In this document: positions 1,034 through 30,638 of the stretch, one piece after another | Layout: each line of letters begins with the position of its first letter | How positions within the stretch are numbered: position 1 is the first letter of the stretch | Assembly: GCA_001779955.1 (NCBI GenBank) | Contig: MFES01000003.1 | Coordinates: 11,348-46,464 of the forward strand | DNA: 35,117 bases | Origin: Candidatus Doudnabacteria bacterium RIFCSPHIGHO2_02_FULL_46_11 | Lineage (GTDB): Bacteria; Patescibacteriota; Doudnabacteria; UBA920; 2-02-FULL-46-11 | Direction: 5' to 3' | Notes under the pieces: generated by a model | Databases searched by the model: none | Told to the model about the DNA's origin: nothing | The model's input: only the letters and a program-made list of their open reading frames with translations | Made by a program: the position numbers and the translations under genes

Positions 1034-2302
1034 ATGGCTAAATCGATCACCATCTTAGGTATAGAAACTTCATGCGATGAAACCGCGGCGGCTGTGGTGG
1101 AATTAAAAAATAACCGCTTCCGAGTTTTAAGCAGTGCCGTAGCCTCACAGGTAGATCTGCATAAACTAACCGGCGGTGTAGTACCGGAAGTTGCCGCGCG
1201 GGAGCATGTAACAACCATAATGCCAACGATTAAGCTTGCGCTTAATCGGGCAACAATCCAAATGTCAAAATCCAAATTTCAAATAAATTCCAAAGCTCAA
1301 AATTCAAAACTTAACTCATTGGACGCAATAGCCGTAACTGCAGGCCCGGGCTTACTGCCGGCTCTTTTGGTCGGTGTTGATACAGCAAATGCCCTGTCTT
1401 TGGCTACCGGCATTCCGGCCATTCCCGTTCAACATATTACCGGACACATATACGCCAACTTCGTTGGCAAATCCGAAATCCGAAAACCTCCGCCCTGGGC
1501 GGAAAAATCTAAACGTTATCACAATGACCTCCGATCGGACAAAAATGTGATAGATGTCCGCAGAATAAAATTTCCCTTGCTTGCCCTGGTTGTCTCGGGT
1601 GGTCATTCCGAATTTATTTTGATGAAAAATTATTTGCAGTTTAAAAAACTCGGCCAAACCCTGGACGACGCGGCCGGCGAATGTTTTGATAAATGCGCCA
1701 AAATTTTAGGACTTCCGTACCCAGGCGGGCCGCAAATTTCTAAGGCAGCGCTTAATGGTAACCCGAAAGCCTTTAATTTTCCGCGGCCCCTCCTTCGCTC
1801 AAAGAGCTATGGAGGGCAAGCAAGGTTTCCGGATGGTAATTTGAATTTTTCTTTTGCCGGTTTGAAAACAGCGGTGCTTTACAAGGTCAATGACCTTGTA
1901 AAAATCAAAAATCAAAAATCAAAAATCAAAAATACAAATAAAAATTCAAAATTACCTAAACAAACAACTGCGGACCTGGCAGCTTCTGTTCAGGCGGCCA
2001 TTGTCGAAACTTTAGTTAAGAAAACCGAACGAGCCATAAAAAAAAATAAACCTAAGTCTTTTACTCTGGGCGGCGGCGTTGCTGCAAATTCGGAATTACG
2101 TAATCAATTACGTAATTTGCTAAGCGACAATTTTCCAAAGGTTAAATACTACGAAACTAAGGTAGAATACGCCACCGACAACGCGGTAATGATTGCCGCC
2201 GTCGGCGCAATGCTTGCCCGCAAAAATTTTACCAAAAAGCTCGGTGGGAAAAAACTGTCAAAATTTGTTAAGGCGAATCCACAATTAGAAATTAAACAAT
2301 AA
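1034..2302 (+). CDS. tsaD: tRNA N6-adenosine threonylcarbamoyltransferase TsaD (Kae1/Gcp family) with four in-frame insertions
   Basis: ILGIETSCDET, GGVVPE.AAREH, AVTAGPGL, LVVSGGHS, DDAAGE.FDK.AK.LGL.YPGGP, FSFAGLKTA and TDNAVMIA motifs. I chose ATG at 1034 over the GTG at 1028. Confidence 0.95.
   Translation: MAKSITILGIETSCDETAAAVVELKNNRFRVLSSAVASQVDLHKLTGGVVPEVAAREHVTTIMPTIKLALNRATIQMSKSKFQINSKAQNSKLNSLDAIAVTAGPGLLPALLVGVDTANALSLATGIPAIPVQHITGHIYANFVGKSEIRKPPPWAEKSKRYHNDLRSDKNVIDVRRIKFPLLALVVSGGHSEFILMKNYLQFKKLGQTLDDAAGECFDKCAKILGLPYPGGPQISKAALNGNPKAFNFPRPLLRSKSYGGQARFPDGNLNFSFAGLKTAVLYKVNDLVKIKNQKSKIKNTNKNSKLPKQTTADLAASVQAAIVETLVKKTERAIKKNKPKSFTLGGGVAANSELRNQLRNLLSDNFPKVKYYETKVEYATDNAVMIAAVGAMLARKNFTKKLGGKKLSKFVKANPQLEIKQ
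1516..1553. repeat. copy of the 38-bp TTATCACA..CCTCCGATCGGA..TGTGATA palindromic element, in frame inside tsaD
   Basis: Same length and spacing as the intergenic copies at 8969-9008 and 20835-20872, about 78% identical. Translated as YHNDLRSDKNVI. Confidence 0.7.
1788..1816. repeat. GC-rich hairpin of the CGCT(N)AAAG(N)CT family, in frame inside tsaD
   Basis: CCCTCC..TTCGCTCAAAGAGCTAT..GGAGGG. Compare CCTCCTCCGCTAAAGCTGGGCGG (25708-25730) and CCGCCTACGCTAAAGCTTCGGCGG (reverse complement of 6371-6394). Encodes the extra LRSKSYGGQ. Confidence 0.55.
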
Positions 2303-2390: not shown

Positions 2391-3473
2391 TTACTTCTTG
2401 ACCGCTGGCGCCGGCGTGGCACCCACGGCCTTGGCGACGCCTGCCTTCACGCCGTTGAAGAACACCTCGCCGCGGCGCTTGAAAAAGCCGCGGATGTAAG
2501 CGTCGTTCCTTGAGGCGTGGAGCTCGGGAACAACGCTGTCCGGGTTCTCCGCCGGCCAGTTGCCGTACCAGGCGAGCATGATCGTGGTGCTGTCGAACGG
2601 GGCGATATCGCGCCGATACTCCCAGTTCAACAGGTAGCGATCCAACAACGCCCGATCCACCTGCCCCGCCAAGACACCAGCGAAAACGCCAATGCCCTGG
2701 GCCGCGACCGGTTTGGATACTGCCGGAAGGCGGTCGTACCAGGTGGCCCACTTCTGATACTTGTAAGCCACCTCCATCGCCTGGTCTTGGGCATTGACCG
2801 CCTTCATTCCCCCGATGCGCCGCAAATTGTCGCGCATCGAGATCACCACGGGCTCGAGCTTTTCGAGGGCCGGCAGATGCGGGGCATACATTGAGTCCGT
2901 CGGGATCTCGGCGGTTTCGCCGAACCTGGCTCCAGCCACCAGTCCCTCGCCCCAGACACTCCGCTCGATCTCCCATTGCACCGAGTCGGGCAGGTCCTTC
3001 ATCGCGATCTTCTCGCGGAATGTGAGCCCTTCGATCACCGCGCTGCGCTGGACGATCGTCGTGTCCGTCAGCTCGTCGCGGAACACGTCTCGGGCCACCG
3101 TGTAGCGCCCGAACTGCCAGTCCTCGCAGTGGCGATCCGTGAGCGAGTTCAGCTCGACGATCTTGTCGCGCAGCTGCTCGGAGGTCACTCGGATGAAGCA
3201 GTCACCCATCTGGAGCAGCACCGAACTGCCATCAAGCGCAACCTCGAGCACGTACTGCCGCGAGGGATAGAGCATCGCCACGGTCCCGGTTCGGTAATTC
3301 CTGAACGAAGTGTTCTCGGAAACCACGAGTCCCTTGCCCGGAGCGGGCTTGGGGATGGCTCCCGACGCCGGGACTGACTTCTCGGGCGCGGCGTCATCGC
3401 CGTTCGCTGCGCCGCAGCCCATCAAGATGATGGCCAGCGCCAACGAACCGAACAACTTGTGCATGCGTGTCAT
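2391..3473 (-). CDS. orphan lipoprotein (360 aa), high GC
   Basis: Signal peptide plus lipobox (LAIILMGC). ATG is preceded by AAGGGGGGACA. Roughly 60-65% GC by eye, with the many spurious overlapping ORFs typical of high-GC coding DNA. No family recognised. Confidence 0.7.
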   Translation of the reverse strand: MTRMHKLFGSLALAIILMGCGAANGDDAAPEKSVPASGAIPKPAPGKGLVVSENTSFRNYRTGTVAMLYPSRQYVLEVALDGSSVLLQMGDCFIRVTSEQLRDKIVELNSLTDRHCEDWQFGRYTVARDVFRDELTDTTIVQRSAVIEGLTFREKIAMKDLPDSVQWEIERSVWGEGLVAGARFGETAEIPTDSMYAPHLPALEKLEPVVISMRDNLRRIGGMKAVNAQDQAMEVAYKYQKWATWYDRLPAVSKPVAAQGIGVFAGVLAGQVDRALLDRYLLNWEYRRDIAPFDSTTIMLAWYGNWPAENPDSVVPELHASRNDAYIRGFFKRRGEVFFNGVKAGVAKAVGATPAPAVKK

Positions 3474-3707: not shown

Positions 3708-6284
3708 ATGGCCCAAAAAGAGCTTGCCAAGGCCTATAACCCGACCGAAGCCGAAGAACGAATATATAAACTCTGGGAAGAGTCTGGTTTTTTTAATCCC
3801 GACAACCTGCCTGACGCCAAAAAACGCGAACCTTTTACCATTATCATGCCGCCGCCCAACGCCAACGCTCCCCTCCATGTTGGCCATGCTTTGTTTTTAA
3901 CGATTGAAGATATTTTGATTCGTTTTAACCGCATGCAAGGCCGTCGCGCACTGTGGCTGCCCGGTTCAGACCATGCCGGTTTCGAGACACAGGTAGTATT
4001 CGAAAAAAAACTGGAAAAAGAAGGCCGCTCGCGATTCAAAATGGAGCGCAAGGAATTGTACAAAGAAATTTGGGATTTCGTTCAAAACAACAAACACATC
4101 AGCGAGCAAGGTATTAAGCGCATGGGATCTTCCTGCGACTGGTCGCGCAATACCTTCACTCTGGATCCAGCAATAATAGAAATCGTCTACGAAACTTTCG
4201 AGCAAATGTACAAAGACGGTTTAGTATATCGCGGCCAAAGAATTTCCAATTGGTGTATCAAGCATCAAACGAGCCTTTCTGATTTGGAAACAAAATACGA
4301 AGAACGAAGCGAGCCTCTTTACTATTTAAAGTACGGTCCTTTTACAATTGCTACGGCCAGACCCGAAACAAAGTTTGGCGATAAATATGTAGTTATGCAT
4401 CCGGAAGATAAACGATATACCCAATATAAGCACGGCGACAAAATTGAAGTTGAATGGATAAACGGAAAAATTACAGCCACAATTATAAAAGACGAAGCCA
4501 TTGACCAGGAATTCGGTACAGGGGTTATGACTATTACCCCTTGGCATGATCCGATTGACTTTGAAATTGCGCAAAGGCACGGTTTAGATAAGGAACAAAT
4601 TATTGATAAATTAGGCAGGCTTCTGCCAGTTGCTGGCGAATTTCAAGATATGAAAATAAAAGAAGCCCGCCCCTTGATTGTCGAGAAACTAAAAACTAAA
4701 AGCCTGCTCGAAAAAGTTGATGAAGATTACAAACACAACGTCCAGCTTTGCTATAAATGCAATAGCGTAATTGAACCGCAGATTATACCGCAATGGTTCG
4801 TGGCTATGACTAAGAGTTTGAAAGATGGCCGACCATCACTAAGGGATATGGCATTGCAAGCCACAGAAAACAATGAAGTGAAAATTATCCCGGAACGATT
4901 TGAAAAAGTATATACACACTGGATGCAAAATCTGCGTGATTGGGCAATAAGCCGCCAAATTGCCTGGGGCATTCCTTTTCCGGTTTGGTACTGTAATGTC
5001 GAAAGGGCAAATATGCCGCGCATACATTTTGCAGATTTTACGGTTGAGCAAGTCTTAAATGGAAAAACAAAAACTTACCGCCTAAAAAATAAAGGCCACA
5101 ACATTAGTGATAAAGTTAGACTGGTAAATAAAACTACGCAAGAAGTTTTTGGCTATGCCACTATTACCAATGTAGAAATTAAAAAAATAAAGGATATTGA
5201 TCTTAGTGATAAAGCTCATTACTCCACTTACAAAAATCTGGACGAACTGCTGGTAGCTTTCAAAAGACACTACCCGCCGGACCAAAAAATTGATGGCGAA
5301 ACAGAAAGCTACATTTACGACTACGCTTTCGAGGCGTTATCGCCGGAAAATACAAAAGACGGTTGCGGCCAAATAATAATATCCGGCGAAGCGCCTAAAA
5401 AATGTCCGGTTTGTAAAAACAAAAATTTAACGCAAGATCCTGATACTTTTGATACCTGGTTTTCATCCGGACAATGGCCGTATGCCACGCTAATGGCTCA
5501 AGGTAAAAAGGATTTCGAAACTTACTACCCTACACAAGTAATGGAAACGGGTTGGGATATTCTCTTTTTCTGGGTGGCGCGGATGATAATGTTCGGGATT
5601 TACAAAACCGGACAAAAACCTTTTAGCACAGTATTTTTGCATGGTATTGTCCGCGATAAAGATCGTCAAAAAATGAGTAAGAGTAAGGGCAATGTGGTTG
5701 ACCCTTTGGGCGTAATTGATACTTACGGTACCGATGCCTTACGCTTTGCTCTTATATTCTCTACTTCAGCCGGCACCGATATTCCATTGTCAGAAGATAA
5801 GGTAAAAGGCATGAAACACTTTGCCAATAAAGTTTGGAACATAGCCAGATTTGTGTTAACCAATCTGGAAAAATCAAAAAACAAAAAACAAAAAACAAAA
5901 TTACAACCTAAAACTGAAAACGATAAAAAAATATTAGAACAGTTGGAACAAACGATAAAGGAAGTGACGAACAATTTGGAAAACTTCCGCTTGCACGAGG
6001 CCGCCCAAAGCATTTACCAGTTTACCTGGCGCGATTTTGCCGATGTTTATATTGAAGCCAGCAAAAAACAACTGTCCAATTCCATGGAATTGGACAGTGG
6101 AAAATCCTCCGCCGCCAAGACCTCGGCGGAGCTTCGGGAAAACACGCAAAGAATTCTTCTTTACTGCCTGCAAAATATTCTGAAATTGCTCCATCCTTTT
6201 ATGCCGTTTGTCACCGAAGAAATCTGGCAACAAATGGAAAACGAACAGTTGTTAATGGTAGAAACCTGGCCCCGACTTCGCTAA
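3708..6284 (+). CDS. valS: valine--tRNA ligase (ValRS)
   Basis: HIGH box (PLHVGHAL), KMSKS box, CP1 editing-domain motifs (TARPETKFGD, GTGVMTITPWHDPIDFE), DTWFSSGQWP, and LHPFMPFVTEEIWQ in the anticodon-binding domain. Confidence 0.97.
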   Translation: MAQKELAKAYNPTEAEERIYKLWEESGFFNPDNLPDAKKREPFTIIMPPPNANAPLHVGHALFLTIEDILIRFNRMQGRRALWLPGSDHAGFETQVVFEKKLEKEGRSRFKMERKELYKEIWDFVQNNKHISEQGIKRMGSSCDWSRNTFTLDPAIIEIVYETFEQMYKDGLVYRGQRISNWCIKHQTSLSDLETKYEERSEPLYYLKYGPFTIATARPETKFGDKYVVMHPEDKRYTQYKHGDKIEVEWINGKITATIIKDEAIDQEFGTGVMTITPWHDPIDFEIAQRHGLDKEQIIDKLGRLLPVAGEFQDMKIKEARPLIVEKLKTKSLLEKVDEDYKHNVQLCYKCNSVIEPQIIPQWFVAMTKSLKDGRPSLRDMALQATENNEVKIIPERFEKVYTHWMQNLRDWAISRQIAWGIPFPVWYCNVERANMPRIHFADFTVEQVLNGKTKTYRLKNKGHNISDKVRLVNKTTQEVFGYATITNVEIKKIKDIDLSDKAHYSTYKNLDELLVAFKRHYPPDQKIDGETESYIYDYAFEALSPENTKDGCGQIIISGEAPKKCPVCKNKNLTQDPDTFDTWFSSGQWPYATLMAQGKKDFETYYPTQVMETGWDILFFWVARMIMFGIYKTGQKPFSTVFLHGIVRDKDRQKMSKSKGNVVDPLGVIDTYGTDALRFALIFSTSAGTDIPLSEDKVKGMKHFANKVWNIARFVLTNLEKSKNKKQKTKLQPKTENDKKILEQLEQTIKEVTNNLENFRLHEAAQSIYQFTWRDFADVYIEASKKQLSNSMELDSGKSSAAKTSAELRENTQRILLYCLQNILKLLHPFMPFVTEEIWQQMENEQLLMVETWPRLR
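5019..5342 (+). other. ASCH/PUA-like (YqfB-like) domain inserted within ValRS (aa ~438-545)
   Basis: IHFADFTVEQVLNGKTKTYRLKN..SDKVRLVN..VFGYATITNVEIKKIKDIDLSDKAH..NLDELLVAFKRHYPP..YIYDYAFE matches my recalled E. coli YqfB pattern ([27 protein letters not shown]..). It lies between Cys429 and Cys553. Confidence 0.6.
6073..6131. repeat. in-frame palindromic insertion in valS: a 24-bp perfect palindrome plus an 8-bp-stem GC hairpin
   Basis: TGTCCAATTCCATGGAATTGGACA (6073-6096) is a perfect palindrome. CTCCGCCG (6107-6114) pairs with CGGCGGAG (6124-6131). Encodes about 13 residues absent from E. coli ValRS at this position. Confidence 0.6.
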
Positions 6285-6343: not shown

Positions 6344-6415
6344 AAAAACCGCCTGCTTGCACTTCGTAGTCCGCCGAAGCTTTAGCGTAGGCGGACGAAG
6401 TAGTGGCGGTTTTTA
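6344..6415. terminator. long bidirectional terminator hairpin between convergent valS and the 814-aa gene, containing a CGCTAAAGC-family hairpin
   Basis: AAAAACCGCC ... GGCGGTTTTT encloses ACTTCGTAGTCCGCC-GAAGCTTTAGCGT-AGGCGGACGAAGT. T-runs follow on both strands. Confidence 0.6.
6369..6395. repeat. 27-nt GC hairpin GTCCGCCGAAGCTTTAGCGTAGGCGGA (identical copy at 11274-11300)
   Basis: Exact 27/27 match between the two loci. The stem is TCCGCC/GGCGGA. Confidence 0.8.
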
Positions 6416-6428
6416 TAATAGTTATAAA

Positions 6429-8873
6429 TTAGTAGGCGGGCACGCCTTGATAAAACTCCGTCCCCGCTAGACGATTAAATTGGCGCTGGGCTCGAAGGGC
6501 TTGCGCACGCAAAGCACGATATTGCTCAACTTTTTCCAGATCCTCGTCCGTCCATTGTTTAGTGCGGATGTATTCCAGATGCTCGCCCAGTTTTTGCCTA
6601 AATTCATCGGCCGTTAACTCGACCGTAAGCGCAGCGGGCGACTGTAAATTTTTTGCTATTTCCTTTACGCTTTTTTGTATTGAGCCGAGCGTGCGCTGAA
6701 GCTCTTGTTTTTGGTCTTTATGCGTTCTTAGCTTTTGATTTTTTTCGGCAATTTGGGCTTCAAGCGCCTTTTTGGCCTTTGTCCGCCTTGATTCATTAAA
6801 ATAATTTGCCTGATTTAATTCAAATTGAGCTTTCGCCAACTTGCCGTAAAGTGTGTACTGATATTCATTATCACCTCTATTACCCAGTTCCCGCTCCAGC
6901 GCATTAATTTTCTCCTGCTCCGCGTCAATGTCAATTGAAAGGCTTGAATAAACTTCATACTCCCCTTGCCATCTCCCCAAGCGAATGGTGTGTTTTACGC
7001 CTGGTTTATCCTCTCTTTCCGGTAGCGTTTCCAAAATTTGGCTAAGCGCGCCTATTTGCGCATAAAGAAAAGAATCGGTCAGTTGCCGCGCCTCGTTATT
7101 TATTCGCTCATACTCTTCGACAAAACGCGCGGTATCCATTTCCTGGCCGTCCAGCCTAGCCGGCGCGCGGCCGGCCTGTTCCAAGGTCTGTATAGCCCAC
7201 TCGGCTTCCAAACGTACAACCAGCATTTCTTTGACTTTTTCCTCTTCTTCAGTTAGCGCCTTATCTTTTTCGTTGATAGAATTTTTTAATCTATAAAGGT
7301 CGAATCTGCGTTGGCCGTGTTGATCATAAAAATCCCCAAGCGCCTGCAGGGTTTCCGGCCTTAATCTTAACCGGCCCTCTTGGGCCGCGACTTTGACCTC
7401 TTCGGCCCGAAACACCGATTCCAACATATTACTTCGCTCGTGATAATCGTAATAGACAATTTCACCAGGCTTCTTTGCTTCAATCGCCCGTAAAGCTTTA
7501 GCCTGCCAATCATCCAAAATAACGGACATCTTTCCGGCTATGGTTGCAATAAGACGGTAATTCGGGATTAAATTGACGGCCTGCTGCGCCGTTAGGTCGC
7601 CTCTCTTACTGCCTTCCAAAAAATATTTAGCCCGATCATCGTCCCTCGCAGCCTGAAGCAAGTTCCTTATTTGCAGGCCATCCGCACCCACATATCGCTC
7701 AAGTTCTTGGCCTATGTGGCTCACCTGCTGTGCTTGGAGCATCTCAAAATAGGCCAGTTGCATTTCAATGTAAAGGTTCTCGGTGTTTGCGCGCCGGCCC
7801 CAGGCTCCGGCCATCGTTCTATTATTAAGCTTATCCGCCAAAACCTGTTGCTCTTGGTACGACCAGCCAGTTGCTTCTATGGCGCTCTGGATGGCCTGGA
7901 AAACAGCGCTGTATTTTTGTTCATAAGCATTAACGGCAAGGGCCGCTTCTCTCGCTTCTTCCTTCATAGCATGCTCAATGGCGGCAATATCCGTTTTCAA
8001 GATATCAACATGCTGTTCCTGCCTTTTTTGCTCAAATTGTTGGTGAATAGCCCCGCCATAAACTTCAGCGATCATGCCCTTAACCGCCTGCGCGCCATCT
8101 GGACCCAAACTTTCTGCATCACGCAAATCTTGGTATCCCACCGTAATCTGCGACGAAGAAGAATATCGATCTTTTAGGTTCTTTTCAAAGTTGCCCCGGA
8201 AACGACCCGCGACTACAGCGTGCCTTTGTTTAATACGCTCCCTGAATTCTTGCCTTTGCGCCTCTTGCGCCTTGCCGGCCGTGGTTTGTTCGCGAAGTTC
8301 CTGAATTTGCCGATCGATTGTTTGCATCTCTGCATTCAGCCTGTCACGCACCGTGGAAAGGTCTGCCTCAAAGTCTTTTTTCTTGCCGGAAATTACAAGA
8401 TCCGGGTACCTGGCTCTTACCTGCTTCCTGGCTGTCAAACTTCGTTTCCTTTTCCAAAGCATGTCACGACCCTCATTGTCCTGTGCCTGAACGTCCTCGT
8501 GTTCAGCATTTATATGTTTAAATTCTTTGCGGCTCGGATTGTCTAAAAATTTCTTAACATCAGGATCCTGGTACGCTTCGTCAACTTTGCCTCGGGCCTC
8601 GGCAAAATCTGCACGAGACTGTTGGTCTTTTGCACCGCTAGATTCAAATTCAGTTAGCATTGCCTGAAGTTCTGCAGCCTGGGCTTCCAGGGCATCTATT
8701 TGGACTTGCAATTCCGAGTCACGGTGTGTTTCTTCCTCTCTTCGTCGCGCCAATAACAAAGCCGCCTTAGCGTCCTCTTCAGCTTGCCTTAAAACCTCCA
8801 GTCTTTGAGCTTCATCCAAGCGAGCCGCTTCAGCCGCGGCCGCCTGTCTTAACACATCTTCTTTTAGCCCCAT
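6429..8873 (-). CDS. orphan 814-aa alpha-helical/coiled-coil protein, hypothetical
   Basis: Long uninterrupted ORF with an ATG start, its own promoter and terminator. E/Q/A/R/K-rich heptad-like sequence. No signal peptide, TM segment or catalytic motif recognised. Confidence 0.8.
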   Translation of the reverse strand: MGLKEDVLRQAAAAEAARLDEAQRLEVLRQAEEDAKAALLLARRREEETHRDSELQVQIDALEAQAAELQAMLTEFESSGAKDQQSRADFAEARGKVDEAYQDPDVKKFLDNPSRKEFKHINAEHEDVQAQDNEGRDMLWKRKRSLTARKQVRARYPDLVISGKKKDFEADLSTVRDRLNAEMQTIDRQIQELREQTTAGKAQEAQRQEFRERIKQRHAVVAGRFRGNFEKNLKDRYSSSSQITVGYQDLRDAESLGPDGAQAVKGMIAEVYGGAIHQQFEQKRQEQHVDILKTDIAAIEHAMKEEAREAALAVNAYEQKYSAVFQAIQSAIEATGWSYQEQQVLADKLNNRTMAGAWGRRANTENLYIEMQLAYFEMLQAQQVSHIGQELERYVGADGLQIRNLLQAARDDDRAKYFLEGSKRGDLTAQQAVNLIPNYRLIATIAGKMSVILDDWQAKALRAIEAKKPGEIVYYDYHERSNMLESVFRAEEVKVAAQEGRLRLRPETLQALGDFYDQHGQRRFDLYRLKNSINEKDKALTEEEEKVKEMLVVRLEAEWAIQTLEQAGRAPARLDGQEMDTARFVEEYERINNEARQLTDSFLYAQIGALSQILETLPEREDKPGVKHTIRLGRWQGEYEVYSSLSIDIDAEQEKINALERELGNRGDNEYQYTLYGKLAKAQFELNQANYFNESRRTKAKKALEAQIAEKNQKLRTHKDQKQELQRTLGSIQKSVKEIAKNLQSPAALTVELTADEFRQKLGEHLEYIRTKQWTDEDLEKVEQYRALRAQALRAQRQFNRLAGTEFYQGVPAY

Positions 8874-8968: not shown

Positions 8969-9008
8969 TTATCACACTTTCCTCCGATCGGAGGCAATTG
9001 TGATAATA
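8969..9008. repeat. 38-40 bp nested palindromic element TTATCACACTTTCCTCCGATCGGAGGCAATTGTGATAA
   Basis: Outer arms TTATCACA/TGTGATAA and inner palindrome CCTCCGATCGGAGG. Second copy at 20835-20872, third inside tsaD. Confidence 0.75.
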
Positions 9009-9670: not shown

Positions 9671-9825
9671 AAACCTCAAACATCAATCTTCAACCCTCAA
9701 ACAATCTTCAAACTTCAATTATCAATTCCGGAAATTGCCAGCCCGCTTGGACTTCGTCCAGGCGAAGTCTGGCGGGGGGTTTGGGGATTGAAGCTTTATT
9801 GGAGTTTGAGTGTTGAAGTTTGAAC
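9671..9825. repeat. CTTCAA/TTGAAG long-hairpin element, copy R1 (basic form)
   Basis: Left arm AAACCTCAAACATCAATCTTCAACCCTCAA, right arm TTGGAGTTTGAGTGTTGAAGTTTGAAC, GC hairpin core GACTTCG-TCCAGG-CGAAGTC. About 90% identical to 25641-25925 once two insertions are removed. Confidence 0.75.
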
Positions 9826-9827
9826 AT

Positions 9828-11171
9828 TTACTCGGTACCCCGAGTTCCCATTCCTGTATCGCTTTCGGTGTCTGCTACATTTTCCGCATCCGGTGTCATG
9901 CCTTCTGAAGCAACCACATCGGCTTCAGCCATCATCGGCTGATCGTCCGAGGCCTCATCTTGCTTGGCCTCTTCCTTGCTCTCAACCGTATCAGCGGCAT
10001 CTTTTTCTATTGTCTCGCCTTCTGTCGTTTCTTCCTCCGGCGGTGAATCGGGCGCCTCTTCTATTTCATCCGGGCTGGCCGTGGCCGCGGTTTCAGTTTC
10101 TTCCAATGCGCCGCCATCGCCCAGTTTCTCCCCGATTATATCTATTTTCCAGCCGGTAAGACGCGCGGCCAAACGCACATTCTGCCCGGCCCGACCGATA
10201 GCCAAACTCAATTGGTCTTCCAAAACTCCCACCCGGGTCTCTTTTTCATCCTCGTTAAGCTGGACGTTTATAATTTTTGCCGGAGACAAAGAATTGCTGA
10301 TAAATTTAACAGGATCGTCGGACCATTCGATAATATCCACCTTTTCTCCGCCGAGTTCGGCCATAATTGTCTGTACGCGCGTGCCGCGCTGGCCCACGCA
10401 GGCGCCGATCGGGTCAACGCCTTCCTGGTTGGAAAATACCGCGACTTTGCTGCGGGATCCGGCTTCGCGGGCAATGGCTTTAATTTCTACGGTACCGGCA
10501 TAAATTTCCGGAACTTCAAGTTCAAAAAGTCGGCGCACGATGTCGGCATGCGAACGGGAAAGTGTAATTTTCGGGCCCTTGGCCGTTGGTTCAACGTGCA
10601 AAACTAAAACCTTCAAGCGTTGGCTAATGCGGTAATTTTCACCCTTAATCTGTTCAGACGGAAACAAAACGCCCGTAGCCTTGCCCATATCCACGAGAAC
10701 GGCATTGCCTTCAAGCCGTTGAACGACGCCGTTAACAATGGTGCGTTCGCGCGACTTAAATTCAGTAAACATGGCATTGCGTTCAGCCTCGCGAAGCCTT
10801 TGCATAATAACCTGCTTGGCGGTTTGGGCGGCAATGCGGCCAAAGTGCGTGCCGTCGGCTGGAGTAATTTCGGTTCGGATCTCGCCATCCATTTCAATAT
10901 CAGGATTTATTTTCTTGCCTTCTTCAAGGGTAATGTATTTAGAAGGCTCTTTTTCCAAAAGTTCAGCATCCTCGGTTATTGTCTTTACGTCAAAAACGCG
11001 GCTGTCTAAAGTCACCGGGTCAAATTCAACTACCGGATTTTGCTCGCGGGTGGCGTAGTCTTTACGAAAAGCAGCGGCTAAAGCCACCTCAATCATTTTA
11101 ATAATTTCTTCCTTGGGTATGCCCTTTTCGTCCGCAATTTGGGTAAGGGCTAAATCAAACTCACTTGGCAT
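9828..11171 (-). CDS. nusA: transcription termination/antitermination factor NusA with an acidic C-terminal tail
   Basis: The N-terminus (ALTQIADEKGIPKEEII..ALAAAFRKDY) plus S1 and two KH regions (GACVGQRGTRVQ, AIGRAGQNVRLAARLTGWKIDI). Confidence 0.95.
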   Translation of the reverse strand: MPSEFDLALTQIADEKGIPKEEIIKMIEVALAAAFRKDYATREQNPVVEFDPVTLDSRVFDVKTITEDAELLEKEPSKYITLEEGKKINPDIEMDGEIRTEITPADGTHFGRIAAQTAKQVIMQRLREAERNAMFTEFKSRERTIVNGVVQRLEGNAVLVDMGKATGVLFPSEQIKGENYRISQRLKVLVLHVEPTAKGPKITLSRSHADIVRRLFELEVPEIYAGTVEIKAIAREAGSRSKVAVFSNQEGVDPIGACVGQRGTRVQTIMAELGGEKVDIIEWSDDPVKFISNSLSPAKIINVQLNEDEKETRVGVLEDQLSLAIGRAGQNVRLAARLTGWKIDIIGEKLGDGGALEETETAATASPDEIEEAPDSPPEEETTEGETIEKDAADTVESKEEAKQDEASDDQPMMAEADVVASEGMTPDAENVADTESDTGMGTRGTE

Positions 11172-11273: not shown

Positions 11274-11300
11274 GTCCGCCGAAGCTTTAGCGTAGGCGGA
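11274..11300. repeat. second exact copy of GTCCGCCGAAGCTTTAGCGTAGGCGGA
   Basis: 27/27 identical to 6369-6395. It sits in the yraN-nusA spacer next to another hairpin, CCTTCGGATTTCGAAGG. Confidence 0.8.
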
Positions 11301-13036: not shown

Positions 13037-13152
13037 ATAAATTTAAAAATCAAAAATCAAAGTTCAAAATTTAAACTTAAAAATGATAACTTCCAGAAAC
13101 AAATTTTGAATTTTTACTTGTAGTTTTGACTTTTGCATTTTGAATTTTGACA
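13037..13152. repeat. AT-rich AAAATCAAAAATC / GATTTT-type inverted repeat filling the ymdB-methyltransferase spacer
   Basis: AAAAATCAAAAATCAAAGTTCAAAATTTAAAC faces AAATTTTGAATTTTTAC..GTTTTGACTTTTGCATTTTGAATTTTGA. Confidence 0.5.
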
Positions 13153-20834: not shown

Positions 20835-20872
20835 TTATCACATTTTCCTCCGATCGGAGGTCGTTGTGATAA
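20835..20872. repeat. second intergenic copy of the TTATCACA..CCTCCGATCGGAGG..TGTGATAA palindromic element
   Basis: TTATCACATTTTCCTCCGATCGGAGGTCGTTGTGATAA. As at 8969-9008, it directly abuts an A-run and a terminator hairpin. Confidence 0.75.
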
Positions 20873-23467: not shown

Positions 23468-23565
23468 AAAACTCCAAACTTCAACCCCCAAGCCTCAAGC
23501 TCTAACCTTCAATATCTGAAGTTTGAATTTTGAAGTTTTGTTGAAAATTGAAGTTTGAGGGTTTA
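23468..23565. repeat. CTTCAA/TTGAAG-type imperfect long hairpin in the trmD-dedA spacer
   Basis: AAACTCCAAACTTCAACCCCCAAGCCTCAAGC.. faces ..TTGAAAATTGAAGTTTGAGGGTTT. Confidence 0.5.
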
Positions 23566-23568
23566 GGA

Positions 23569-24315: not shown

Positions 24316-24381
24316 AAAAAATAATCCAAAATTTATTTCCGAAATTAATCACTTTTGGATTTCAATTTTGATTTTTGATTT

Positions 24382-25640: not shown

Positions 25641-25925
25641 AAACTTCAATCCTCAATCTTCAACCCTCAAGCAATCTTCCTGCCTGCGCCGAGGCTTCCT
25701 CCTTCGCCCCCTCCTCCGCTAAAGCTGGGCGGGCAGGCAAGGCTTCGGAGGACAGGTCGGCAGGCAGGCAAACTTCAATTATCAATTCCGGAATTGCCAG
25801 CCCGCTTGGGCTCCCGCCTGACTTCGAAAAGACGAAGTCTTGTCGGGCAGGTCGTCCAGGCGAAGTCTGGCGGGGGGTTTGAGGCTTGAAGTTTTAATGG
25901 AGTTTGAGTGTTGAAGTTTGGAGTT
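25641..25925. repeat. CTTCAA/TTGAAG long-hairpin element, copy R2, carrying two nested GC-rich palindromic insertions
   Basis: Colinear with R1 (9671-9825) except for a 90-bp insert at 25680-25769 (ends CCTGCCTGC / GCAGGCAGG) and an insert of about 40 bp near 25809-25852 (GACTTCG-AAAAGA-CGAAGTC core). Confidence 0.75.
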
Positions 25926-25955
25926 TTTGCCTTCCTATTTTATCACTTACTATAC

Positions 25956-26764: not shown

Positions 26765-27046
26765 CCCGCACACCATAACCGCAATATTGCTCTTCTTAAA
26801 CCATCATAGGTAATAAAATCTTGGTTAGCATAACGGATATTACAGTAATCATCGTTACACAATATCGCAATAGGTACAGGTTTATTGCGGTTTGGTGTCT
26901 GGGTCAACCCGGTACACCACAACTGCAATATCGCTTTACTATAAATCGTCGTAGGTAATGCTAGAACTTATTTCGAGAATTTACGCTAACATGAGCTATT
27001 ATCAATGGCGCAATAGGTACAGATTTATTGCTGTTTGGTGTCCGGG
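26765..27046. repeat. two tandem T-type elements (about 139 bp each, 143-bp period), each flanked by TCAA
   Basis: TCAA at 26761-26764, unit A 26765-26903, TCAA, unit B 26908-27046, TCAA at 27047-27050. Arms ACCCGCACACCATAACCGCAATA / TATTGCGGTTTGGTGTCTGGGT. The right arm of unit B encodes the last 7 codons and the stop of rpsP. Confidence 0.7.
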
Positions 27047-27441
27047 TCAACCGCTGGGGTCTCCTCCGGGGCGGGTGTTTGCTCCGCCGGAGCGGCTTCT
27101 GCAACCGGTCCGCCAGCTGGCGGATTAGTAGCTGCGGCGGGCGTAGCGGCTTCGGCTGGCTTCTCTGATTTCTTTGGCCTCCAAGCTTTAACTTTTACGC
27201 CCTCCTTCACAACTTTATTGGTTACAAACAAATTGTGAACGGTCGCACTGACTTCTACGTTCTGGCCAAGCCAATACTCAAGGCGGGCCTGATCGGAAAT
27301 CTTAAATTCTTTATTGCGCGGGTTATAGTTGCCCAGAATTTCCAGGAACTTCTTTGACGCGGCTTTTGTCTTCTGCGCCAGCACGATGCGGAATTGCGGC
27401 TGATGCTTCTTGCCTATTCTTTGCAGACGGATAATTAACAT
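27025..27441 (-). CDS. rpsP: 30S ribosomal protein S16 with an Ala/Pro-rich C-terminal extension
   Basis: MLIIRLQRIGKKHQPQFRIVLA...LGNYNP core. Confidence 0.95.
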   Translation of the reverse strand: MLIIRLQRIGKKHQPQFRIVLAQKTKAASKKFLEILGNYNPRNKEFKISDQARLEYWLGQNVEVSATVHNLFVTNKVVKEGVKVKAWRPKKSEKPAEAATPAAATNPPAGGPVAEAAPAEQTPAPEETPAVDPDTKQQ

Positions 27442-27608
27442 ACTTAATTTGATAGACTTAATACTTCTAAAATGCTTGATTATATTACAGAAATATCAAA
27501 GGGTTTGTCAATCAGCTCCTTAAATCAACTTTCAGAAGGTAAAAGTAAAAATTCATTTCAAAACTTTTAAATTTTTTAATTGTAATTTTGATTTTTGATT
27601 TTTGATTT

Positions 27609-28220
27609 TTAATTTACTCGGATGTGCCGCCAAATATACCAGACCAAACTTAAAACTATAAGAATGGCGATAGCCACGTCAAAACCGCGCAACTGTTCGT
27701 GCAGGCTTTCCCAATGAGCGCCAAGCTTCATTCCTAAAAAAGCTAAAATATAAGACCAAATAAAAGATCCGACAAAAGCCGCGAGTGTAAAAGACCAAAA
27801 CGGGGTTTTAGCTATGCCGGCCGGCACCGAAATATAGGTGCGGACAATCGGCAGCATACGGCCGATAAATGTGCTCCAGGCGCCGTATTTTTTGAAAAAT
27901 CCGTCAGCCTTGTCCAGATCACTCTTTGATATGAAAACATAATGGCCATACCGTTCGACCAAAGGCCGCCCGCCCTTGAGAGCAATAAAATAAATAACCC
28001 ACGACCCCAAAACTGAACCGATTGCGCCGGAAAGAGCAGCGCCAAAAAGAGTAAACCTGCCCTCGTGAACCAAAAAACCGGCAAAGGGCATGATTATTTC
28101 ACTTGGCAAAGGTATGGCGGCAGATTCGATGGCCATCAATACGGCAATGCCAATGTAACCAGCGGCGGAGATGGTATTGGTTACAAAATTTATTATTGGC
28201 GATAAAATAGTTTCCAACAT
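27609..28220 (-). CDS. dedA: DedA family membrane protein
   Basis: Canonical motifs ESAAIPLPSE and FIGRMLPIVRTYISVPAG. Confidence 0.9.
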   Translation of the reverse strand: MLETILSPIINFVTNTISAAGYIGIAVLMAIESAAIPLPSEIIMPFAGFLVHEGRFTLFGAALSGAIGSVLGSWVIYFIALKGGRPLVERYGHYVFISKSDLDKADGFFKKYGAWSTFIGRMLPIVRTYISVPAGIAKTPFWSFTLAAFVGSFIWSYILAFLGMKLGAHWESLHEQLRGFDVAIAILIVLSLVWYIWRHIRVN

Positions 28221-28343
28221 AAATTTTAATCCTCAAAACTCAAACTTCAATCCTCAATAAAACTTCAAACACCAAGCTTCAGTTCTGGACTTGAGATTTG
28301 ATCATTGAGGGTTCCTGGAGGCTCGAGAGTTGAAGTTTGAAGT
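28221..28343. repeat. CTTCAA/TTGAAG-type imperfect long hairpin filling the smc-dedA spacer
   Basis: AATCCTCAAAACTCAAACTTCAATCCTCAA.. faces ..TTGAGGGTTCC..GAGAGTTGAAGTTTGAAGTTT. Confidence 0.5.
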
Positions 28344-30638
28344 TTACTCTTGGGCGTAGGTCAAGGAATCATCAAATTTAATTGATAAAATTTGTGAAAC
28401 GCCGGAATCGTTCATGGTCACGCCGTAAAGCGTATGCGCCCGGCGCATGGTTTCGCGGTTGTGGGTGATGGTGATAAATTGGGTGCGATCAGAGAGCGTG
28501 CCAAGAATTTTGGCAAACCGGATGCTGTTGCTTTCATCCAAAGCCGCGTCAACTTCATCCAAAACAACAAACGGCGAAGGGTAAGCGTCTAAAAGGGCAA
28601 TCAGCAAAGCGATGGTGGTCAGCGTGCGCTCCCCGCCGGAAAGAGCGGAAATGGAAGAAAGTTTTTTACCGGGTGGTGTGGCACTAATATCAATGCCGAT
28701 TATATCCTGATTCGGCTCTATCTTCTTTTCCTGTTCTTCCTCATCCTCCTCGTCCGTGCCGTCCTCATTTTTGATTTTTGATATTTGATTTTTGATTTTC
28801 TTTAAATCGGCTTTGCCGCCGTTAAAAAGTACCCGAAAATAATCGCTGAATTTGGCTGAAATGATAGAGAAAGCTTCATTAAACTTTTCTTTGATTACAG
28901 CGTTCAATTCCTCAAGCACGGTTTCCAAATCAGTTGCGGCCGCTTCTAAATCGCGAACTTGGCCGGTGAGATAACTGTAGCGCTCCTCGGTTTCCTCGTA
29001 TTCGCGGGCAGTTTGTTCGTCCAAACCTCCAATCTGTTCAAGCTGGCGTTTGAGATAAGAAATCTGCTCATCAGCAGCGGCATCCTGAACTTGAGCGGTG
29101 CCTTTGATAATTTCCTTAAAATTAGCTCCTAAATCTTCAGTAGCGCTTCTTTCTTCCTCTTCTTGCTTTGTTTCGATGCGAGCCAGTTCAATTTTGAAAT
29201 TATTTTGTTCACTGCGTAGCCGGTTTAAATCTTGTTCTTCTTTTCTTATTTTTTTGTCGGCCTCCTGGCGCCCGCTGGTATAAGCAGATATGTTGGTTAG
29301 CTCGTTTTGCAGATCAGCCTGCAATTTATTTAGCGACTTCTCATGAACCTGAATAATCTTATCAAGTTTGTCGGCCGCTTCTTGAAAATCACTGCCGCCG
29401 GCGCCGATTTCGGCTTCGATTCGGGCAATAGCCCGGGCCAGATCCTGTTTCTGGCTGATCATTTTTTTTATCAGTTGTTTCTGATTATTTAAAAAACGAT
29501 CGCTTATCTGATTGAAGCGCGGCACCAAATCGGGCTTGGAGGAATTCAAGATATCAACAATCTCTTTAATGTCCTGCTCGGTCTCGAGGATATTTTTTTC
29601 AAAATCCTCCACTTGGCTGGAAAGTTCGGCCTGCTGACGGCGCAGATCATCGCGTCTACCATGCAGGGCGGCCAAATCTTTTTGCGGGTTCGATAAGTTT
29701 GCCCCCATTTTCACGCGTAATTCTGCCAATTCCAGCTGCAACCTTTCTTTTTGGCGCTGCTCGTTTACAATACTCTGCTGAAGCGCGGTAATAGTTTGTG
29801 AACGCTTGGTTGAATTCTGGTCGCTCTCCTCAACTGAACGGAAAAACTTTTGCACCGCGCCCTCGAGCTGTTTTATTTTTGTCTCGAGCTCATTAATCTG
29901 CCCGGTTAAATTGCTTTTATCCTTTTGCAGATTGGCAAAAATAAACAATAACCTGCCGGATAGTAAATCTTTCCACTGCTTCTCAATCTCCGATCTTTGC
30001 TCCAATTTTTTTGCCTGGCGGCGCAAGGTGCGAAGCCTAGGTTCAATTTCGGCAGTTAAAGCGCTGACTTGGGTTAAATTCTCACGCGTGGCGGTAAGCC
30101 GGCGCACGGTTTTTTGATGTTTTTCGTAAAAAGGAGCGAGCCCGGCCGCTTCTTCAATTACGCTCTTGATTTCCGCCGGCCCCTGTAATAAAAACTGATC
30201 AATTATACCCTGGCCAATAACGGTGTAACGCGATTGAGCAAAGCCGGCTTTTTCCAGAAGCTCGCTTATGTCCATAAGACGCATTTGCTCGTTGTTGATT
30301 AGGTATTCCGAGCTGCCGTCGCGGTGTAGCCGGCGGGTAATGACAACTTCAGCCGAATCCACCGGCAATTTTTTATCTTGATTGTCAAAAATCACCGAAG
30401 CATGGGCCACGGATGAACGCATCCTTTGGGCTGAACCGGCAAAAATTACATCTTCGGCTCTTTTGCCGCGAAGGAGCAGTTTGCTTTGCTCGCCCAAAAC
30501 CCAACGCACGGCATCGGAGATATTCGACTTCCCCGAGCCGTTTGGCCCGACAATAGCCGTAATCCCCGGCTGAAATGCCAGGTCAGTTTTATGAGCAAAT
30601 GATTTGAAGCCTTGTATTTCTAAACGTTTGAGGTACAT
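28344..30638 (-). CDS. smc: SMC-family chromosome partition ATPase, unusually short (764 aa), no obvious hinge
   Basis: N-terminal head (LEIQGFKSF, Walker A GPNGSGKSN) and C-terminal head (PPGKK..LSGGERTLT.IALL, Walker B FVVLDEVDAALDE, ITHNRETM). Only about 360 aa lie between the heads. Confidence 0.85.
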   Translation of the reverse strand: MYLKRLEIQGFKSFAHKTDLAFQPGITAIVGPNGSGKSNISDAVRWVLGEQSKLLLRGKRAEDVIFAGSAQRMRSSVAHASVIFDNQDKKLPVDSAEVVITRRLHRDGSSEYLINNEQMRLMDISELLEKAGFAQSRYTVIGQGIIDQFLLQGPAEIKSVIEEAAGLAPFYEKHQKTVRRLTATRENLTQVSALTAEIEPRLRTLRRQAKKLEQRSEIEKQWKDLLSGRLLFIFANLQKDKSNLTGQINELETKIKQLEGAVQKFFRSVEESDQNSTKRSQTITALQQSIVNEQRQKERLQLELAELRVKMGANLSNPQKDLAALHGRRDDLRRQQAELSSQVEDFEKNILETEQDIKEIVDILNSSKPDLVPRFNQISDRFLNNQKQLIKKMISQKQDLARAIARIEAEIGAGGSDFQEAADKLDKIIQVHEKSLNKLQADLQNELTNISAYTSGRQEADKKIRKEEQDLNRLRSEQNNFKIELARIETKQEEEERSATEDLGANFKEIIKGTAQVQDAAADEQISYLKRQLEQIGGLDEQTAREYEETEERYSYLTGQVRDLEAAATDLETVLEELNAVIKEKFNEAFSIISAKFSDYFRVLFNGGKADLKKIKNQISKIKNEDGTDEEDEEEQEKKIEPNQDIIGIDISATPPGKKLSSISALSGGERTLTTIALLIALLDAYPSPFVVLDEVDAALDESNSIRFAKILGTLSDRTQFITITHNRETMRRAHTLYGVTMNDSGVSQILSIKFDDSLTYAQE
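28768..28806. repeat. AT-rich TTTTGATTTTTGAT repeat in frame inside smc
   Basis: TTTTTGATTTTTGATATTTGATTTTTGATTTTC encodes KKIKNQISKIKNE. The same string family occurs in spacers at 24361-24381 and 27578-27608. Confidence 0.55.

Follow-up and report, generated by a model that had tools for sequence, protein, structure and literature searches.

The tRNA-modification gene tsaD of Candidatus Doudnabacteria bacterium RIFCSPHIGHO2_02_FULL_46_11, an uncultured bacterium from groundwater, carries short in-frame inserts, at least two of which are demonstrably, as judged by nucleotide comparison, copies of elements dispersed through the surrounding DNA: a 38-nt palindrome that resembles the repetitive extragenic palindromic (REP) sequences, and an arm of about 50 nt from a family of heptamer arrays. 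The DNA analysed, referred to throughout as the window, is a stretch of 35,117 nt (contig MFES01000003.1, positions 11,348-46,464) with a G+C content of 45%. We consider it probable, at roughly 0.6, that loops of tsaD able to tolerate extra residues took up short stretches of the genome's own stock of non-coding repeats, and alignment indicates that the inserts occupy indel hot spots common to the TsaD proteins of the Candidate Phyla Radiation (CPR, Patescibacteria). A first-pass annotation of the window had gone further, proposing that about 80 extra TsaD residues lie in four loops, each encoded by a recognisable intergenic repeat, in parallel with the Rickettsia palindromic elements (RPEs).

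The tsaD coding sequence (1034..2302, plus strand) is an intact open reading frame (ORF) of 1269 nt that encodes 422 aa, matches Pfam PF00814 with E=4e-77 (259.9 bits, curated cutoff 24.8), as a member of the TsaD/Kae1/Qri7 family of threonylcarbamoyladenosine transferases, and can be aligned end to end with the 337-aa TsaD of Salmonella and E. coli. The borders of the inserts were taken from alignments to 17 and then 118 CPR TsaD homologs. In the resulting set of 119 sequences the metal ligands H134, H138 and D382 (His-x3-His and a C-terminal Asp) form invariant columns. AlphaFold2, given this alignment of 119 sequences, yields a model with a mean predicted local distance difference test (pLDDT) score of 88.6 that overlays with the solved TsaD structures 3zet/4ydu with a target-normalised TM-score of 0.89. 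The pLDDT drops only in blocks 71-90, 141-170, 251-270, 291-310 and 401-410, which are the inserts, and falls below 50 at residues 162-168, in the loop encoded by the palindrome. The inserts are therefore modelled as low-confidence loops on an otherwise normal TsaD fold, and the open frame implies that they would be translated. Predicted tryptic peptides of the protein include SEIRKPPPWAEK, YHNDLR, SDKNVIDVR, SYGGQAR and IKNTNK. Seven assemblies, drawn from six samples or more, contain the 1269-nt gene with 100% identity, which rules out mis-assembly. No array-length polymorphism was seen across these seven, although consensus assemblies could mask minor variants, and look-ups with the NusA and TsaD of the window returned seven identical copies and no tsaD allele lacking an insert. 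The first-pass annotation was thus correct in its count of extra residues, in its account of the catalytic motifs and in the sequence strings that it quoted, all of which are found where it placed them. Its four loops are likewise present and fall in low-pLDDT regions of the model, but it overlooked a fifth, seven-residue insert near the C terminus.

All five inserts are read on the plus strand. Insert 1, MSKSKFQINSKAQNS (aa 77-91, nt 1262-1306), is defined by the alignment and is a tract with the heptamer periodicity CAAAnnn. Insert 2 (aa 146-172, nt 1469-1549), also delimited by alignment to the homologs, is composite. It begins with an exact heptamer array, (AAATCCG)x2.4, at 1469..1485, which encodes KSEIRK and is reported by Tandem Repeats Finder (TRF) with period 7 and 100% matches; this is followed by a perfect GC mini-hairpin with a 6-bp stem and a 3-nt loop, TCCGCC-CTG-GGCGGA, at 1489..1503, and by the 38-nt palindrome copy at 1516..1553, which encodes YHNDLRSDKNVI and gives a repeat match of 92%. 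Insert 3, SYGGQARFPDG, occupies aa 258-268 (nt 1805-1837) in the alignment. Insert 4 is an (AAAAATC)x7.6 array with the tail TACAAATAAAAATTCAAAATT (1898..1955), an arm of the heptamer family, within which the alignment assigns the extra residues to aa 291-305 (nt 1904-1948). The small C-terminal insert, FTKKLGG (aa 399-405, nt 2228-2248), was placed by alignment and coincides with the pLDDT dip at 401-410.

To compare the inserts with the intergenic DNA and the other coding DNA of the window we used blastn-short, with 200 dinucleotide-preserving shuffles of each insert as the control. The palindrome scored 50.1 bits against a shuffle maximum of 26.3, a value reached by none of the 200 shuffles (z about 15). 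Insert 4 scored 61.9 bits to intergenic DNA at 27442-27608 and 58 bits to the SMC gene, again reached by 0 of 200 shuffles (z about 14).

The palindrome has the form TTATCACA-N4-CCTCCGATCGGAGG-N4-TGTGATAA and, with up to three mismatches allowed, is present in three copies in the window against an expectation of none. In the tsaD copy 27 of the 30 specified positions agree and the length is exactly preserved; both of its 4-nt spacers match those of the 20835 copy in reverse orientation; read in reverse, the latter translates as YHNDLRSEENVI, which may be set beside the peptide of the tsaD copy. One of the three forward frames of the tsaD copy is open, and this is the frame used. The two intergenic copies (8969..9006 and 20835..20872, neither assigned to a strand) each lie a few bases from the terminator hairpin of the gene upstream, clpP and rplS (L19), respectively, and the second is the closest to the copy in tsaD. 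They fold with z-scores of -5.0 and -5.1, whereas the hairpin in tsaD is weakened to -2.1, a degradation that is as expected for an unselected relic. A fourth, perfect copy (z -8.3) is present at position 4295 of an unrelated metagenome contig (L001), between convergent genes and just 3' of gatB. The palindrome is, on this evidence, a small REP-like family.

As for the heptamer family, TRF finds 46 tandem arrays in the window, 20 of them with period 7, and a lag-7 self-identity of at least 0.6 is reached by 17 segments, compared with 0.5 per shuffle. Twelve of the 17 segments are intergenic and five are coding, namely TsaD inserts 1 and 4 and segments in the valyl-tRNA synthetase (ValRS) gene, in the SMC gene and in one hypothetical gene. 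In insert 4, TRF assigns period 7 to 1900-1951 (7.6 copies), with four exact units at 1900-1933. Two intergenic arms, 13102-13150 and 27566-27615, match the insert with 88% identity along 49-50 nt, and the match includes the non-tandem tail TACAAnTAAAAATTCAAAATT; this 20-nt tail is common to all three, which speaks for homology along the entire arm, beyond the sharing of a unit. The first of the two arms belongs to an intercistronic hairpin built from two heptamer-array arms (13040..13152, minus strand; -20.5 kcal/mol, z -2.3). The second lies in a single (AAAAATC)n arm that forms no hairpin (27563..27618, minus strand; z 0.4) and begins at the stop codon of a dedA-like gene. The same array-plus-tail architecture as in insert 4 is found in frame in ValRS, where (AAAAAAC)x4.6 with the tail CAAAATTACAA encodes EKSKNKKQKTKLQPKTEN (5866..5920, plus strand; 82%), and (AAAAATC)x4.7, KKIKNQISKIKN, lies in frame in the SMC gene (28767..28799, minus strand; 97% match). 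In total the unit AAAAATC occurs at five loci in 35 kb, and the window holds heptamer arms in frame in three genes and one in-frame copy of the palindrome. All four coding heptamer copies are A-rich in the sense strand, while the T-rich orientation of every heptamer arm tested contains stop codons in all three frames. Taken together, the matches make the palindrome and insert 4, in our judgement, true homologs of extragenic repeats in the window.

The remaining similarities are of a different kind. Of the six that had been put forward as intergenic repeats, the palindrome and insert 4 exceed their shuffles, the kind of control that the first-pass annotation itself had named as a test, but the other four do not: the best intergenic match of insert 1 was equalled by 39 of 200 shuffles, that of the AAATCCG tract within the window by 37, that of the CCGCC-CTG-GGCGG hairpin, which is too short for significance, by 102, and that of insert 3 by 64. 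The proposal that each loop derives from an intergenic repeat therefore holds for two of the elements and fails as a general statement. Insert 1 passes the lag-7 threshold (segment 1266-1314), is assigned period 7 by TRF and folds to 0 kcal/mol, i.e., is unstructured; its periodicity fits the heptamer class, with no tie to a particular copy. The AAATCCG unit also encodes NPKSEIR in a TsaD loop of another locus (L023) and is present in the ValRS gene of L004. The stem of the insert 2 mini-hairpin is also the stem of mini-hairpins at the insert 3 site of other TsaD genes (L008/L009/L091) and of the intergenic hairpins at 6370 and 11275 of the window. The semi-conserved ANFVG at the left edge of insert 2 is likewise encoded by a perfect hairpin, GCCAAC-TTC-GTTGGC (1454-1468), and two of the six perfect GC-rich hairpins of this 6-bp/3-nt type in the window thus fall at this single loop. 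At the Rfam gathering threshold a tRNA was the sole match.

Insert 3 had been assigned to the CGCTAAAGC GC-hairpin family of the window, an assignment that is not supported. Its gapped alignment to the TCCGCCGAAGCTTTAGCGTAGGCGGA family is marginal, reached by 22 of 1000 shuffles and equalled at about 24 other places in the window. The hairpin CCCTCC..GGAGGG at 1788-1816 (z -2.6) pairs insert 3 with conserved upstream codons. The TCCGCCGAAGCTTTAGCGTAGGCGGA 26-mer itself occurs in identical form at 6370-6395 and 11275-11300, as the core of larger terminator-like hairpins that lie downstream of valS and upstream of a UPF0102 gene.

Comparison with relatives bears on whether these inserts are derived. 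The nearest TsaD relatives, which are 64-69% identical over aligned columns, keep the gene order of the window (S11 peptidase, TsaD, ValRS, ClpP, NusA), lack inserts 1, 3 and 4 and carry short, unrelated sequences at site 2. At that site, which holds the palindrome, P0003 and P0005 have 9-10 residues compared with 37 in the TsaD of the window. The repeat families of the window are absent from the intergenic DNA of the syntenic relatives, and a TsaD-based scan of species genomes for closer relatives returned only Staskawiczbacteria-like genes with 37-43% identity. A lineage-specific origin of the inserts is thus supported by the available sequences. The positions themselves are variable far more widely: at sites 1, 2 and 4 at least eight extra residues are present in 27, 36 and 37 of the 119 homologs, respectively, and control stretches of TsaD are constant in length across the set.

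We propose the following account of how the inserts might have arisen. Transfer would have run from intergenic DNA into the gene, by template switching or gene conversion and not by a transposase. Insert 1 and the AAATCCG array would most likely be products of the same heptamer-amplifying process, whether slipped-strand or tandem in nature and possibly seeded by ectopic copying. As tsaD is essential in most bacteria, selection on the gene would act as a filter, and the survivors would be those inserts with a length that is a multiple of three, no stop codons and an A-rich sense orientation, the last because the T-rich orientation carries TGA in every frame. Such inserts would yield hydrophilic loops rich in Lys, Asn, Gln and Ser, which are probably near-neutral passengers rather than functional modules.

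The TsaD loci of other CPR genomes provide a wider test. When inserts were compared with their own flanks, 5 of 52 beat all 60 shuffles (sites 2 and 4 of the window, L007 site 1, L053 site 2 and L076 site 4), compared with 0 of 76 conserved control stretches, which supports recurrent in-frame repeat capture in CPR TsaDs. In 86 loci TRF reports 157 period-7 arrays, of which 46 lie inside tsaD, although tsaD makes up 6.9% of the DNA (p=2e-17); for other periods the figure is 42 of 765 arrays (p=0.95). In 45 CPR loci (among L002-L053, L077, L084, L090, L091 and the window) the density of period-7 arrays is 896 per Mb in tsaD, 103 per Mb in other coding DNA and 432 per Mb in intergenic DNA, whereas arrays of other periods reach 584, 624 and 1295 per Mb, respectively. 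For period 7, tsaD thus exceeds other coding DNA 8.7x and intergenic DNA 2x in array density, with no enrichment for other periods. We considered whether this excess could be a retrieval bias introduced by insert peptides and rejected it, as 79 of the 80 loci were retrieved by the core peptide ECFDKCAK. Six sites recur as positions of the tsaD arrays, and in 38 of the 46 arrays the A-rich strand is the sense strand; most are imperfect, with 75-92% matches. Their length distribution peaks at 28-35 nt, a few measuring 52-58 nt, and intergenic arrays show the same 28-35 nt mode without any constraint of frame. ValRS and a protein of 715-742 aa are further recurrent hosts.

Several of these results weigh against the absorption of dispersed repeats as a full account. 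Four of the six similarities, as described above, do not exceed shuffles. The palindrome family appears small: an exact-core scan for TCACA-N4-CCTCCGATCGGAGG-N4-TGTGA gave no match in 185,579 species genomes, the JGI metagenomes gave one (L001), and a further 9 kb of flanking DNA of this organism, which brings the total to about 44 kb, contains no copy beyond the three of the window. Signs of a transposition mechanism are also wanting, as no target-site duplication was found in the flanks of the four palindrome copies, although inverted ends are present, and no transposase or REP-associated tyrosine transposase (RAYT) domain was found in a Pfam scan of 28 window ORFs. Of 30 strong TsaD arrays in other CPR genomes, only 2 have a counterpart with exactly the same unit among the arrays of their own +-10 kb flanks, and most of these arrays therefore look locally born, not imported. 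Finally, period-7 arrays are denser in tsaD than in intergenic DNA, so that tolerance of junk alone is not an easy explanation. The window remains the clearest case of a repeat family common to tsaD and its flanks.

The strongest competitor builds on this scarcity of shared units elsewhere and holds that only the palindrome was imported: the A-rich tracts (insert 1, the AAATCCG array and insert 4) would have been born in situ by local heptamer slippage, and their likeness to intergenic arrays would reflect a shared mutational bias without copying. Heptanucleotide repeats are the most abundant class of long simple sequence repeats (SSRs) in prokaryotes, with polymerase slippage as the proposed cause (PMC4679880), nearly every TsaD array elsewhere has its own unit, and lengths of 28-35 and 52-58 nt are compatible with three-unit steps that keep the frame. 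The same length mode, however, appears in intergenic arrays that are free of such a constraint. In the window, slippage within the gene would also have to account for the recurrence of AAAAATC at five loci and for the 20-nt non-tandem tail that insert 4 shares with 13102-13150 and 27566-27615. We regard birth in situ as a real possibility, though one with the odds against it.

The insert 3 site introduces a further class of element. Here, between DF and DFSFSG, exactly ten residues are added in six further CPR TsaDs. The DNA that encodes them is a 30-nt module in which two perfect GC hairpins abut, each with a 6-bp stem and a 3-nt loop (L007 2435-2464, L092 2492-2521, L008 2975-3004, L009 1245-1274, L090 3617-3646 and, with one mismatch in the second stem, the same site in L091). 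The module occurs in the variants TCCGCC-AAA-GGCGGA then CCAGCC-TCT-GGCTGG, TCTGGC-GAA-GCCAGA then CCAGGC-TCC-GCCTGG, and TCGTCC-AAA-GGACGA then CCAGCC-TAT-GGCTGG. Both-sided, compensatory changes of the stem are seen at three positions in the first hairpin and one in the second, and the encoded peptide shifts with them (SAKGG, SGEAR, SSKGR). The carriers are polyphyletic, and their closest neighbours have an empty site. The double hairpin is also found in frame in a ValRS loop (L048 12983) and in the N terminus of another protein (L045 12238), as well as upstream of genes (L016 9329, L030 5622). A GATTTT repeat flanking the 30-nt insert was examined as a possible target-site duplication and rejected, as the empty site already reads DF-DF. 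Insert 3 of the window, with 11 codons, lacks the double hairpin and shows a weak peptide resemblance (GGQARFPDGNL vs SGEAR-PGSAW). Had the extra segments been conserved as protein in distant orthologs, their derivation from repeats would have been in doubt; a ten-residue insert at exactly this site is indeed shared by distant orthologs, so that for insert 3 the doubt applies in part, but there it is kept as a double hairpin of DNA or RNA, not as a peptide.

These modules raise a rather unlikely but more far-reaching reading, in which some as yet undescribed process in CPR bacteria generates discrete modules some 30 nt long, either heptamer arrays of about 4.5 units or abutting double mini-hairpins with co-varying stems, that sit at recurrent positions in housekeeping genes and, rather than being tolerated junk, are kept for a role at the RNA level with tsaD as the preferred host. 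That role could be mRNA processing, or feedback on TsaD synthesis via decoding of ANN-rich tracts that depends on N6-threonylcarbamoyladenosine (t6A).

More generally, the inserts could have a selected function at the level of RNA or protein, which we think unlikely. They could be structured or periodic RNA modules that are processed by RNase III or RNase Y, both of which are encoded in the window, or recognised by a heptamer-binding protein; they could be disordered linkers that contact partner proteins; or ANN-rich tracts could make TsaD synthesis sensitive to t6A, because t6A serves the tRNAs that decode ANN codons. Selection would account for the specific period-7 excess in tsaD and for the double mini-hairpin stems that stay perfect by compensatory change while the peptide varies. 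It is weakened by the finding that close relatives differ in units, sites and presence, by the decay of the palindrome copy in tsaD, by the arrays hosted in ValRS and other genes, which mean that TsaD is not unique, and by the ability of intrastrand template switching to maintain stems without selection. ANN codons do make up 48% of the arrays compared with 34% of whole genes, and 78% of insert 4 of the window, but this enrichment is a trivial result of A-richness. The related idea that the heptamers mimic anticodon loops was rejected, as the units do not fit YUNNUAA.

A role as a contingency locus, in which gain or loss of one unit switches tsaD off or on (phase variation) because 7 is not a multiple of 3, is very improbable. 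Coding heptamer arrays are classical frameshift-prone repeats, and the four exact units at 1900-1933 would suit such a switch. However, the gene is identical in all seven assemblies, most arrays are imperfect, several occur in one gene, and the gene is one that most bacteria cannot do without. Least credible of all is that these are ordinary low-complexity, lineage-specific loops whose likeness to intergenic DNA comes from composition alone, which agrees with the best local alignments of insert 1, the AAATCCG tract, the CCGCC hairpin and insert 3 but is refuted for the palindrome and insert 4, in two of the four loops, and is at odds with A-rich tracts that are no background property at 45% G+C and with shuffles that lack period-7 structure.

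Although absorption of the genome's own repeats, our preferred reading, produces an outcome familiar from other systems, the elements are distinct from those described so far. RPEs are dispersed palindromic repeats found between genes and in frame in housekeeping genes (Ogata et al. 2000, via PMC10969869); they are about 100-150 bp long and form defined families (RPE-1 to RPE-10) with dozens of members per genome (PMC10969869). The tsaD palindrome likewise belongs to a dispersed family with extragenic copies, lies in frame in an ORF that stays open, and is inserted at a site tolerated by the fold, with presence or absence differing among orthologs (empty site in P0003 and P0005). It is, however, 38 nt long with three copies in about 44 kb, its host is a free-living or episymbiotic CPR bacterium and not a Rickettsia, and part of the inserted material in TsaD consists of tandem heptamer arrays rather than palindromes. 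The parallel drawn in the first-pass annotation therefore extends to behaviour but not to length or family membership: given its length, the tsaD palindrome works like an RPE but is not one.

With REPs and REPINs the palindrome shares its nature as an imperfect, hairpin-forming palindrome of 20-40 nt (z -5.0 and -5.1, and -8.3 in L001) (PMC3733652, PMC3116915), and its extragenic copies lie just 3' of genes, by terminators or between convergent genes (8969, 20835 and L001 4295). It differs in lacking the GTAG/CGTC end motif, its ends being TTATCACA and TGTGATAA, in the lack of a RAYT among the scanned ORFs, in an apparently low copy number and, to judge from the reading frame, in that one copy lies in frame in tsaD, whereas REPs are extragenic by definition. 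MITEs, the miniature transposable elements with inverted repeats, differ in that the palindrome, despite its inverted ends, has no target-site duplication common to the flanks of its four copies.

Known heptanucleotide SSRs, such as the cyanobacterial STRR sequences and the Beggiatoaceae TAACTGA repeat, are mostly intergenic and near start codons, and their orientation in ORFs is limited by the stop codons that the unit creates (PMC4679880). The arrays of the window are also head-to-tail 7-nt units with a stop-limited orientation in ORFs. In contrast to the single unit of the known cases, the window and CPR arrays use many A-rich units, often form inverted pairs that fold into intercistronic hairpins and are frequently in frame in housekeeping genes, with a strong excess in tsaD; copy-number polymorphism was not seen in the seven assemblies at the consensus level. 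The tandem repeats of Borgs are similarly A-rich, occur both between genes and in ORFs, and add disordered hydrophilic segments while the frame is kept (PMC9879509). Their unit length in ORFs is always divisible by three (PMC9879509), whereas the TsaD unit is 7 nt and gives a 7-aa peptide period per 21 nt, so that only certain total lengths are viable.

No account of in-frame repeats in CPR came to light in our literature searches. Until now, the capture of small repeats in frame was known mainly from Rickettsia and a few scattered MITEs; the same outcome now appears in CPR with much smaller elements (30-50 nt), and involves tandem heptamers, though their unit length should be hostile to reading frames. 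This offers a concrete explanation for the greater length and variability of CPR housekeeping proteins relative to their homologs, and carries a warning for annotation, as loops rich in K/N/Q/S or encoded by hairpins may be derived from repeats. Whatever process produces the heptamer arrays, tsaD could serve as its natural reporter, and both the array excess of the gene and the co-varying mini-hairpins offer testable entry points to a function that might operate at the RNA level.

Outside tsaD, hairpins with heptamer-array arms fill the spacers between co-oriented genes on the minus strand at 9680-9827, 13037-13152, 23492-23568, 24316-24381 and 28221-28343, each extending from a gene's stop codon up to where the next gene starts. 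The hairpin at 9680-9827 folds with -53 kcal/mol (z -5.5). With genes for RNase III and RNase Y present in the window, such spacer hairpins could act in mRNA processing or translational coupling. A 76-nt repeat, composed of the GC hairpin TCGTCCAGGCGAAGTCTGGCGGGGGG and a heptamer arm, occurs with 91% identity at 9754-9829, beside nusA, and at 25852-25927, beside a murA-like gene. Near the 3' end of rpsP (S16), a gene with a long C-terminal extension in the window, a 50-nt sequence is present twice, at 26860-26909 and 27003-27052, with 90% identity and a distance of 143 nt.

ValRS has a 148-aa insert at 4992-5435 that the syntenic relatives L002 and L004 lack; it ends in CPVC and has an earlier CYKC. 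We considered it as a candidate for repeat DNA and rejected it, as it looks like a folded, zinc-binding-like domain with CxxC motifs. Two ORFs, one at 2391-3473, lipoprotein-like, 360 aa long and set in a patch of 55% G+C, and the other at 6429-8873, of 814 aa, have no Pfam match. Both may be acquired DNA, because in the syntenic relatives these positions are empty or hold a far smaller gene. In the same organism, some 6-9 kb upstream of where the window begins, a serine recombinase and a small terminase subunit occur together (L094 561-3886), which suggests a prophage remnant near the window.

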